Sequence record: NZ_CP022471.1 | Source of the DNA: a plasmid | Reading direction: 5' to 3' (one strand) | Length of the DNA: 45,197 bases | Shown here: piece after piece, positions 19,917-21,426 of the stretch | Layout of the letters: each line of letters starts with the position of its first letter | Numbering within the stretch: the first letter of the stretch is position 1 | Translations under genes and position numbers: made by a program | Notes under the pieces: model-generated | The model's database searches: none | Seen by the model: only the letters and a program-made list of their open reading frames with translations | Told to the model about the DNA's origin: nothing

Positions 19917-19934
19917 AAATTGAGCGTTTTATTT
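19917..19934. repeat. Left copy of a perfect 18-bp inverted repeat AAATTGAGCGTTTTATTT. Its partner is at 21409..21426.
   Basis: An exact reverse-complement match was found by direct comparison. It lies 37 bp beyond the recombinase stop codon. Confidence 0.8.
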
Positions 19935-19971
19935 TATTACAAAATTTTTTATATTTTTCTTAAATGAAAAT

Positions 19972-20586
19972 TTAGCTTCCTTTTAATTTTCGTTTTTTGA
20001 TAAACCACAATAGACCATCATAGCTTTTTCCATTATCTTTGTATAATAACTTCCAAATACTTTTAATAGATAAATCTTTATCAAGCAAGGTTTGTATTTT
20101 ATCTATATCCTTATCATAAATACTATTTAATGAGCCTTTAGGGCGTCCCAGTTTTTTTCCACTAGCTCTAGCATTTTCTAGTCCTGCTTTAGTTCTTTGA
20201 CTTATCAAATCTCTTTCATTTTCTGCTAAGTAAGCATAAACCGATAAGATTAATTTAGAAGCAGGATTATTAAAATTACTAAGTTCCATTTGTCTTAAAA
20301 ATAAGAATTTAATATTATTAGAATTAAATTCAAGCACTAAATTAATTATTTCTAACATACTTCTACCAAGTCTTGAAAGTTCTGTTGCTATTAATAAATC
20401 ACCTGCTTTTAGTTTTTGTTTTAAATCCTTGATTTTTCTTTTCTCTTGAGATTTTGTAGAACTTATTTTTACTTCCAAAATTTCATCCAAATGAATATTG
20501 TTTTTATGACAATATTCCATAATTTCTAACTTTTGAGAGTCTAATTCTTGTTTATTTGTTGATACTCTTATGTATGCTATATTCAT
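19972..20586 (-). CDS. Serine recombinase of the resolvase/invertase type, with an N-terminal catalytic domain and a C-terminal HTH.
   Basis: IAYIRVSTNKQ carries the catalytic serine motif. RLGRS is present. A C-terminal HTH is present. 204 aa. Confidence 0.85.
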   Translation of the reverse strand: MNIAYIRVSTNKQELDSQKLEIMEYCHKNNIHLDEILEVKISSTKSQEKRKIKDLKQKLKAGDLLIATELSRLGRSMLEIINLVLEFNSNNIKFLFLRQMELSNFNNPASKLILSVYAYLAENERDLISQRTKAGLENARASGKKLGRPKGSLNSIYDKDIDKIQTLLDKDLSIKSIWKLLYKDNGKSYDGLLWFIKKRKLKGS

Positions 20587-20960
20587 CGTTCTAAATCTTT
20601 TAACTTTTGATTTTTTGGTGTTTTTTCAGTAAATTCTTTAAGTTTTTGATGAAAATCTTTAGCACATAAGTCTTGTATAGTCTCTTTTAAGCTATACTGC
20701 TCTCCTATTTCAGTAATATCAAACTCTTTAACACATTCGCCAAGCCAAGTAAATTTTTTAGTGAGCTTATTAACTATTCTTATAACTCGTCTTTCATTTA
20801 TTGGCTCTTTTGAAGTATAACCTGAATATTGTCTATGCTCGAAACCATTTTCAAGCATAAATTTTTTAATCAAAGAATAAGGTTCTCTTGTATCTTTGAA
20901 ATATTTTTCAAGACTTTTTGTAGATAAATCAAAATTAATTGCTTTGCGATTTATTCCCAA
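20583..20960 (-). CDS. vapD: VapD-family (Cas2-like) endoribonuclease.
   Basis: Similar to VapD across the sequence (AINFDL...EPY...LENGFEHRQYSGY...RVIRIVNKL). Overlaps the recombinase start by 4 nt. Confidence 0.6.
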   Translation of the reverse strand: MGINRKAINFDLSTKSLEKYFKDTREPYSLIKKFMLENGFEHRQYSGYTSKEPINERRVIRIVNKLTKKFTWLGECVKEFDITEIGEQYSLKETIQDLCAKDFHQKLKEFTEKTPKNQKLKDLER

Positions 20961-21274
20961 ATTCCTTCTCCTTCAGCTTTACTTGCAGAAATTAAATCGC
21001 TATTTCCTTCTTTTTCACTAATCCAAATCCATTCTTTTGCATTTTTTGTAAACCATTCAGAATCAATCAAATATTTATATATAAATAAAGTCATACAACC
21101 TAAATCATACTTATCCCCTTTACAATGATAAGTTTCTTTATTAATTTTTATCATTCCTGATTCTTTAGCATATTCATCTATCATTTTATACATATCTTCT
21201 AAATTATATTTGCCTTCTTTTAAAATCTTTTCTTCATCTAATACTATTCTTGTACCTAAAAGTGGGTATGCCAT
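20951..21274 (-). CDS. Small protein upstream of vapD and overlapping it. Possible VapX-like antitoxin partner.
   Basis: Assigned only by position: it overlaps the vapD start by 10 nt and sits in the antitoxin position. Confidence 0.3.
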   Translation of the reverse strand: MAYPLLGTRIVLDEEKILKEGKYNLEDMYKMIDEYAKESGMIKINKETYHCKGDKYDLGCMTLFIYKYLIDSEWFTKNAKEWIWISEKEGNSDLISASKAEGEGIWE

Positions 21275-21408
21275 TTTTTTATCCTTTCATCAAAAACCTA
21301 ACAAATTCTAGTAAAAAATAGCTAATACTTAAATAAAAGCTTTTGAATAATATTAATTTAATTATAAAACTAAATTTAATTTATTTATTAAATACAAATT
21401 TAAGACAT

Positions 21409-21426
21409 AAATAAAACGCTCAATTT
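21409..21426. repeat. Right copy of the 18-bp inverted repeat AAATAAAACGCTCAATTT. It lies 19 bp upstream of the virB2 start codon.
   Basis: Exact reverse complement of 19917..19934. Confidence 0.8.

Follow-up and report, generated by a model that had tools for sequence, protein, structure and literature searches.

The stretch of DNA analysed here (the window; 45,197 nt, record NZ_CP022471.1) is a conjugative plasmid of Campylobacter that belongs to the pTet/pCC31 family and is of the tetracycline-resistance type. Close to the start of its type IV secretion system (T4SS) operon, three minus-strand genes, encoding a small serine recombinase (cpp27 in pTet), VapD, and the product of a 107-aa open reading frame (ORF; cpp29), are enclosed by two 18-bp repeats in inverted orientation. 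These repeats are very probably the crossover sites of the enclosed recombinase, since their central dinucleotides co-vary from lineage to lineage, five types of natural junction fall at or beside that dinucleotide, and a relative carries the site as a dyad of 13-2-13 layout. As read from assembled sequences, the natural recombination products show that both repeats are active sites at which exchange takes place at the central dinucleotide. With less assurance, we favour the reading that the cassette is an inverton, whose sites probably serve a Hin/Mpi-like enzyme and whose flip would swap two outward promoters.

In Campylobacter jejuni and C. coli, tet(O) and further resistance genes are carried mainly by plasmids of the pTet family. 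The “resolvase” of these plasmids has been regarded as a housekeeping gene, and nothing in the literature searched links pTet to DNA inversion or describes such a system. If the cassette does invert, expression of the conjugative pilus, and hence plasmid spread, would be governed by a heritable and reversible DNA rearrangement. Regardless of inversion, the exact nucleotide at which accessory modules are exchanged and at which the plasmid integrates into the chromosome is identified; it accounts for the variable region of comparative studies, and the hybrid sites offer a tracing marker.

Position, layout, and conservation of the repeats

The repeat AAATTGAGCGTTTTATTT occupies positions 19917-19934, with its exact reverse complement at 21409-21426. 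A preliminary description of this DNA, made from the sequence alone, had noted an exact pair bracketing the recombinase, vapD, and 107-aa genes, and both this and the 37-nt gap that it gave between the left copy and the recombinase stop codon are confirmed. The right copy does lie upstream of the virB2 ATG (21445), at a distance of 18 nt rather than 19. No further copy of the 18-mer with two or fewer mismatches is present in the whole window. The length of the repeat is in itself weak evidence, because an exact inverted repeat of at least 18 nt arises in 35% of second-order Markov shuffles (mean 0.4, observed 3); for two chosen 120-nt intergenic stretches, about 3e-6 inverted 18-mer matches are expected. 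The earlier argument that chance was unlikely thus fails for the window as a whole, whereas chance is excluded by comparison with relatives. On our reading of the sequences, it is this comparative evidence, namely the same positions in relatives and the co-varying copies, that is decisive, not length.

Two arms around a 2-bp centre constitute the textbook layout of a serine-recombinase crossover site. The two 18-mers are very probably the cores of two sites of ~28 bp, left (IR-L) and right (IR-R), each with 13-bp arms around an AG centre (Table 1); in IR-R, the centre (21419-21420) reads CT on the plus strand and AG on the minus strand.

The repeat pair is present at the same positions in pTet, pCC31, C. 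helveticus, C. estrildidarum, Helicobacter rodentium, and an element of H. typhlonius, and exact repeats of 11-23 nt are found in these relatives. At both ends, the repeat is AAATTGCTCGTTTAATTT in pTet NCTC 13357, (A)ATTGTTCGTTAAATTTTA in pCC31 and its relatives (16-19 nt exact), AAAAATTGAGCGTTTTATTT in C. estrildidarum, TAAAAATGAACGATTAATTTT in H. rodentium, and TATGGAATTAAAATTGAACGATT in the H. typhlonius-type element, whose recombinase is 59% identical; C. helveticus has a diverged pair at both ends. A lack of conservation of the 18-mer, raised earlier as a point that would speak against a recombination system, is not what was found: the pair is kept at the same positions in every relative examined. 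The centre varies by lineage (AG, CT, TT, or AA) and is never palindromic, and in 9/9 tabulated lineages it is equal in both copies. The right-hand site of H. typhlonius, GGAATTAAAATTG-AA-CGATTTTTATTCC, is a near-perfect 13-2-13 dyad with arms that match at 11/13 positions, and the centre of this dyad coincides with the dinucleotide that varies by lineage. Dyad symmetry of the arms amounts to 4-5/13 in the C. helveticus site.

Between the repeats of C. estrildidarum and of the H. typhlonius element stands the recombinase gene alone (vapD is absent from the cassette in the compared loci L012 and L058), which shows that the repeats go with the recombinase and not with vapD or the 107-aa gene. 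The toxin–antitoxin cargo, previously proposed as a coupled part of a switch, is therefore dispensable. A role of the 18-nt motif at the RNA level was also considered, given its place in the 5′ untranslated region (UTR) of virB2 and at the 3′ end of the recombinase mRNA, where it might be a VapD target. The repeats are also kept around cassettes that lack vapD, and such a role was therefore rejected as the main explanation.

Within the window, no further pair of crossover sites was found, the search returning one 3-mismatch match without CG and isolated weak matches to regular expressions. As a candidate secondary site, ATTTG-CT-CGTTATATTG at 35709-35719 (minus strand), in the ORF at 35301-36122, resembles the site of the CT lineage; the pattern is a loose one, and the match probably reflects chance.

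Natural recombination products

Rearrangements of five independent types (replacement of cargo in three of them, deletion in one, and integration into the chromosome in one) break at the centre or no more than one base away from it. In the replacements, each of three different cargo blocks abuts the inner half of IR-L (breaks are marked here by slashes). The block with RepL, a Cas2-like gene, and a TIR gene (L021/L074) has the junction ...CAATATCT/AGCGTTTTATTT, with the break before AGCG, and the block with a uracil-DNA glycosylase (UDG) gene and a racemase-like gene (L023) has ...AAAATATT/AGCG...; in the third, with a methyltransferase gene (L072), the shared sequence extends one base beyond the core. 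In the deletion (L036, three samples), the outer half of IR-R is joined to a look-alike within the recombinase gene (Table 1), whose parental sequence is ...AAAATCA-AG-GATTT.... The product reads AAATTG-AG-GATTTAAAAC or, written out, CGTTAAAAAATTG-AG-GATTTAAAACAAA, and it has lost the 107-aa gene, vapD, and 76 recombinase codons. In the chromosomal integration (L041/L049, CP172349.1), the junction is chromosome...AAAAAGG/AGCG..., the inner half of IR-R meeting the chromosomal flank exactly at AG; L049 corresponds to CP172349.1 205043-219366.

Many of the module copies are found on contigs of 1.5-1.8 Mb (L048-L056), in which pTet-like DNA is joined to chromosomal sequence. Among these, the right repeat is the junction in CP172349.1 only; the others break in the ATPase gene or virB4, and such breaks could be either real events or misassemblies. 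Near the ATPase stop codon of pCjH61, no reciprocal junction of the RepL/TIR cargo was found.

A cassette of the H. typhlonius type also occurs in a different backbone, in one metagenome contig (L061), where an identical recombinase and both inner arms lie between VirD4-like and VirB5-like genes and homology stops at the central AA on both sides. Together with the recombination of the sites with pseudo-sites in other replicons, this gives some support to an alternative offered in the preliminary description, a small mobile recombinase cassette with the inverted repeats as its termini. It would be an old insertion beside virB2, exchanged between replicons in two steps, cointegration at one end and resolution at the other. 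We consider this quite improbable. L061 is a single contig, neither the place of the cassette nor its orientation, divergent from virB2, changes among pTet, pCC31, and the Helicobacter elements, and, by the established mechanism of the family, a serine recombinase does not excise in one step a segment between inverted sites with asymmetric centres.

Outward promoters at the crossover sites

Transcription start sites (TSS) were taken from published differential RNA sequencing (dRNA-seq) of C. jejuni 81-176, with the pTet coordinate equal to the window coordinate minus 78; the three 51-nt TSS sequences used, from Dugar et al. 2013, are identical in the window. The TSS at 19925 on the minus strand (pTet 19847; step height 85.5, enrichment 10.9) is antisense to the ATPase gene, that at 21418 on the plus strand (pTet 21340; step height 84.1, enrichment 5.3) is primary for cmgB2, and that at 21299 on the minus strand (pTet 21221; step height 27.7, enrichment 1.9) is primary for cpp29, with a UTR of 25 nt (Dugar et al. 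2013, PMC3656092, Table S5).

The first two belong to promoters that point out of the cassette at its left (P_L) and right (P_R) ends. Both start at the same G of the repeat, AAATAAAAC-G/CT/CAATTT, directly adjoining the crossover dinucleotide (set off here by slashes), and at each end the -10 element and the upstream part lie on the invertible side while the transcript lies on the fixed side. Since the TSS adjoin the dinucleotide at both ends, the promoters would move with the cassette and the transcribed genes would stay in place. We know of no described inversion system in which TSS abut the crossover dinucleotide at both ends. P_L (TTTTG-TAA-TAAAAT) fits the Campylobacter consensus better than P_R. 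A scan for promoters and terminators of the E. coli type found fewer sites than in shuffles, with a model that is unsuited to Campylobacter promoters.

The earlier placement of the virB2 promoter inside the bracketed segment agrees with the TSS at 21418, which falls inside the right repeat. The ON/OFF phase variation of the pilus deduced from it is unlikely, because the left end, too, has an outward promoter, which is of equal strength and initiates at the corresponding base of its repeat. With such promoters at both ends, inversion would be a promoter swap and not an on/off switch.

That both copies hold a mapped TSS and part of a -10 element also agrees with a duplicated promoter or leader module, or a chance AT-rich match, with no role in recombination, and 18-mer inverted repeats are, as noted, not rare in shuffles. 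This explanation is extremely unlikely, as it leaves unexplained why five junction types fall on one dinucleotide or at most one base from it, why the +2/+3 dinucleotide changes in step in the two copies from lineage to lineage, and why the relative has a 13-2-13 dyad.

The recombinase

The recombinase matches the Pfam PF00239 catalytic domain over residues 3-145, and its catalytic-serine motif, YIRVSTNKQ, aligns with YVRVSTNDQ of Gin. Its best PDB match is the Gin invertase (67.9 bits, E 1e-17, catalytic domain only), followed by gamma-delta resolvase. The best NCBIfam family is the Mpi master invertase NF009949 (E 1.1e-39, 181/203 positions aligned), with 136.3 bits against a cut-off of 272; as this is half of the cut-off, the protein is to be regarded as a relative of Mpi and not as a member of the family. 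Pfam reported no C-terminal helix–turn–helix, and the alignment to the Mpi-family profile reaches residue 181. The recombinase family is large within Campylobacter and Helicobacter.

In L032, L033, and L035, the recombinase gene is split, apparently a pseudogene, and the repeats and the gene order are unchanged. P0081 and P0082, considered as two cassettes in one backbone, turned out to be the same gene with different start calls.

Proposed mechanism and orientation of the cassette

As inverted sites with one and the same asymmetric centre, IR-L and IR-R would flip the 1.47-kb cassette when they recombine, and the inner arm of each site doubles as the end of an outward promoter. In the present orientation, the virB2 T4SS operon is driven by P_R, and P_L fires leftward, either into cargo or against the ATPase gene as antisense. 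Inversion would place P_L in front of virB2, with read-through from the cassette operon as an addition, and would turn P_R to the left. Occasionally the sites recombine with look-alike sequences, which accounts for the cargo replacement left of IR-L, the deletion, and the chromosomal integration. The retention of an inverted second site and an asymmetric centre that tracks through four states speak for selection on recombination between the two sites, which at inverted sites amounts to inversion. We infer that inversion proceeds at a useful rate and changes expression. A wider proposal is rather unlikely, namely that the cassette represents a conserved two-ended promoter-swap inverton combined with a gene-capture point in conjugative plasmids and integrative elements of the Campylobacterales. 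Inversion would then reciprocally rewire the T4SS operon and the left-hand accessory genes, IR-L would recruit accessory DNA (defence, replication, and methylase genes), and the left-hand site would also mediate integration of the plasmid into the chromosome.

For a direct view of orientation, the junctions predicted after inversion were built and searched in the plasmid collection; the inverted type would read GACAAATTGAGCGTTTTATTTATGTCTTAAATTTG at the left junction and TTTTGTAATAAAATAAAACGCTCAATTTTTTAACGAAAGG at the right. The results, with several other observations, weigh against the inverton. The right (virB2-side) junction occurs in 0 of about 190 matching PLSDB records, the left junction is matched, among plasmid records, solely by the chimeric AP025960.1, and 7 GTDB loci and ~185 contigs reached through the protein index all have the same arrangement. 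AP025960.1 is itself inconsistent, its right junction being normal, its left junction of the inverted type, and the record wrapping inside the recombinase gene; it could owe something to assembly. A contig break in L030 could come from two co-resident plasmid variants. Moreover, dyad symmetry of the pTet arms is just 6-8/13, in AT-rich DNA, some pTet-like plasmids persist with the recombinase gene split into ORFs of 74-77 aa and 128 aa, and the measured strengths of P_L and P_R are similar (85.5 versus 84.1).

The left junction of AP025960.1 runs from the small genes through the 18-mer into the upstream sequence of the 107-aa gene and the gene itself, exact at the repeat; apart from one substitution, the record otherwise departs from the window by single-base indels, almost all of them in runs of A or G. 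A record of this kind, with one normal and one inverted-type junction, is what assembly of a linear contig from a mixed population would give. The Logan contig ERR15698500_44 (3 samples) starts at the first base of IR-R, which is the graph branch point expected if both junctions are present among the reads, a start for which other explanations exist. When JGI metagenome contigs were scanned for the virB2-side junction, only three unrelated chance matches appeared, and in viral contigs the pattern matched nothing. As loci and contigs share one arrangement, the inverted state is at best a minority. The search for the opposite orientation in homologous plasmids thus yielded one inverted-type junction, in AP025960.1, and no fully inverted plasmid, and direct evidence for inversion is thin. 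Of the recombinase-driven invertible switch first proposed, the genuine crossover sites and this one junction stand, whereas no inverted consensus was seen and an on/off mode is not indicated.

A single orientation in every consensus assembly also agrees with the main rival of the inverton, in which the sites serve chiefly for multimer or cointegrate resolution and as operators, in the manner of Tn3 resolvase, and inversion is a rare and unselected side reaction. In a dimer, each site would gain a direct-repeat partner, and the bound recombinase would repress both outward promoters; the sites overlap -10 to +3 of both promoters, a natural position for a repressor. Public annotations name the protein a resolvase, and deletion between directly oriented sites does occur (L036). 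We nevertheless judge this rival rather unlikely. One site would suffice for it, which leaves unexplained why an inverted second copy is kept with a centre that tracks through four states, and the best sequence matches are invertases, not resolvases. Besides, a junction of the inverted type exists in AP025960.1, and no three-subsite, res-like array was recognised beside either copy by regular-expression scan and eye only, in AT-rich sequence that makes such scans weak.

Gene map and coordinates

A query covering 19500-21900 matches 225 plasmid records, nearly all from Campylobacter, of which 186 cover at least 80% of it and some are 100% identical. The genes run in the order AAA-family ATPase cpp26 (plus strand), cpp27, vapD, and cpp29 (minus strand), and virB2/cmgB2 (plus strand), followed by the long T4SS operon. 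Against the NCBIfam VapD equivalog, VapD scores 150 bits (cut-off 100), and it has weak Cas2 matches in PADLOC. The 107-aa protein has zero matches in Pfam, NCBIfam, and PADLOC, and gene order alone fits VapX.

Table 1. Genes, recombination sites, and promoters of the cassette region (window coordinates).
Feature	Coordinates	Strand	Description and evidence
Left crossover site IR-L	19910..19937	+	Outer arm 19910-19922 GATAGACAAATTG, centre AG 19923-19924, inner arm 19925-19937 CGTTTTATTTTAT
Outward promoter P_L	19925..19975	-	TTTTG-TAA-TAAAAT-AAAAC-G(+1); leftward transcript across IR-L
Small serine recombinase, 204 aa (cpp27 in pTet)	19972..20586	-	Pfam PF00239, E 6.9e-34
Secondary (pseudo) site within recombinase gene	20415..20442	-	AAAAGAAAAATCA-AG-GATTTAAAACAAA, core 20428-20429
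vapD, Cas2-like endoribonuclease family	20583..20960	-	NCBIfam VapD equivalog, E 1.7e-44
107-aa ORF (cpp29), first gene of cassette operon	20951..21274	-	ORF; TSS 25 nt upstream
Cassette-operon promoter (107-aa ORF, vapD, recombinase)	21299..21349	-	-10 TAGAAT after T-run
virB2 (cmgB2) promoter P_R	21368..21418	+	TSS 21418 within IR-R; 5′ UTR 27 nt
Right crossover site IR-R	21406..21433	-	Inner arm 21406-21418, centre 21419-21420, outer arm 21421-21433
virB2/TrbC pilin, first gene of long T4SS operon	21445..21708	+	Pfam TrbC, E 1.1e-13

Variable cargo left of IR-L

The interval between the ATPase gene and IR-L is a hot spot of variable cargo (L002 1-3802; L031 7850-10360; L023 239-1523; L072 1095-1515; L057 8556-12986), and several of the blocks resemble defence modules. 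Among them are the uracil-DNA glycosylase, the methyltransferase, a TIR protein of the ThsB type accompanied by RepL and a Cas2/VapD-like gene, and a histidine kinase/ATPase together with a cytosine methylase and a response regulator. Minus-strand genes, readable by P_L, often lie directly left of IR-L, such as two small genes in pTet NCTC 13357, a histidine kinase and a response regulator in pAR-0413-1, and RepL and a Cas2-like gene in pCjH61; other cargo types are convergent, and adjacent captured genes face P_L in only about half of the cargo types.

In L004 (2283-2477; also in L050, L051, L053, and L032), the small gene at IR-L contains tandem units of ~27 nt, GATTTGGATTTTGTTGATCAGATCTTG. 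In plasmids of the pTet NCTC 13357 type, the called length of the small gene beside IR-L is 46, 63, 64, or 78 aa, which suggests variation in repeat number. In pCjH61 (L031 10400-10460), CGTTTAG occurs twice with ~19-nt spacing outside the hybrid left site (GGGTCGTTTAGATTATCGCTATTCGTTTAGCAATATCT/AGCG...), and this pair could represent RepL iterons or further half-sites of the recombinase.

Other inverted repeats and transcription starts in the window

Two other exact inverted repeats are present in the window. One, CTTGTATTAAAAAATGATAA, is 20 nt long and lies at 2724-2743 and 17611-17630, with one arm within the ORF at 2400-2930 and the other downstream of a strong TSS at 17574, which is listed as primary for CJJ81176_pTet0021 (a gene of 219 nt with a 5′ UTR of 64 nt). 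mRNAs carrying the two arms would be complementary over 20 nt. The other, CAAGAAAAATCATTTGAA, is 18 nt long and lies at 26455-26472 and 32336-32353. With 3 such repeats observed against 0.4 expected from shuffles, these two may also be other than chance.

An internal TSS at 26597 (plus strand), in the ORF at 26482-27453 (cmgB5), has a step height of 85,985 and is assigned to the small RNA (sRNA) candidate CJpt2 (Dugar et al. 2013, PMC3656092, Table S5). It is about a thousand times stronger than the TSS of virB2.

Comparison with known systems

In function, the closest likeness is to Hin/hix of Salmonella, and the nearest system by sequence is the Mpi family; the recombinase is a member of neither. 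Hin, too, lies inside a ~1-kb segment with inverted sites, an asymmetric 2-bp centre, and a promoter for an operon outside. The preliminary description held that invertases of the Hin/Gin type lie inside their segments; this is true of Hin, whereas Gin, Cin, and Pin are generally known to lie beside theirs. Similarity in sequence to Hin and Gin is distant (Gin, E 1e-17). The Hin switch is on/off, whereas here there are two outward promoters with TSS that abut the crossover point and a swap is expected, and both orientations were not seen here among the assemblies. The Hin/Gin enhancer depends on Fis, which, to our knowledge, Campylobacter lacks. Mpi of Bacteroides fragilis, the best-scoring curated family, likewise flips promoter-bearing segments between short inverted repeats; it differs in acting in trans on many loci from outside the invertons, whereas here a single cassette contains its own recombinase gene. 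The core of the Mpi repeat, presumably ARACGTWCGT (ACG-TW-CGT), a string that did not appear in the papers searched, resembles TTG-NN-CGT in the sites described here, and the C. helveticus site AATCGTTCGT matches 9/10 of this presumed core.

Other small serine recombinases are likewise plasmid-borne, such as Beta recombinase with its six site (pSM19035) and Sin/Bin of staphylococcal plasmids. They resolve direct repeats, invert inverted sites, and contribute to plasmid maintenance. In contrast to the present case, they need accessory sites and a host bending protein, neither of which was identified here, and have no link to a conjugation promoter; Sin matches the recombinase weakly (E 4.5e-5). 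Tn3/gamma-delta resolvase belongs to the same superfamily, its site overlaps promoters that the recombinase can repress, and res is a known hot spot for the exchange of accessory DNA between plasmids. However, res has three subsites and is used as direct repeats only, whereas here there are two single inverted sites with co-varying centres.

Two systems with tyrosine recombinases resemble the cassette in particular respects. The integron (intI, attI, Pc) is alike in function only, in that a recombinase, an adjacent joining site, and a resident promoter reading out, here P_L, are combined; it uses single-stranded attC, and no cassette arrays were seen here. The R64 shufflon likewise resides on a conjugative plasmid and acts on the mating pilus through site-specific inversion, but its recombinase, Rci, rearranges the coding sequence of the pilV tip adhesin and not a promoter. 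Thus, what distinguishes the pTet cassette from these systems is the presence of two outward promoters that abut the crossover points, the link to a conjugation operon, and the use of the same sites for cargo exchange and chromosomal integration.

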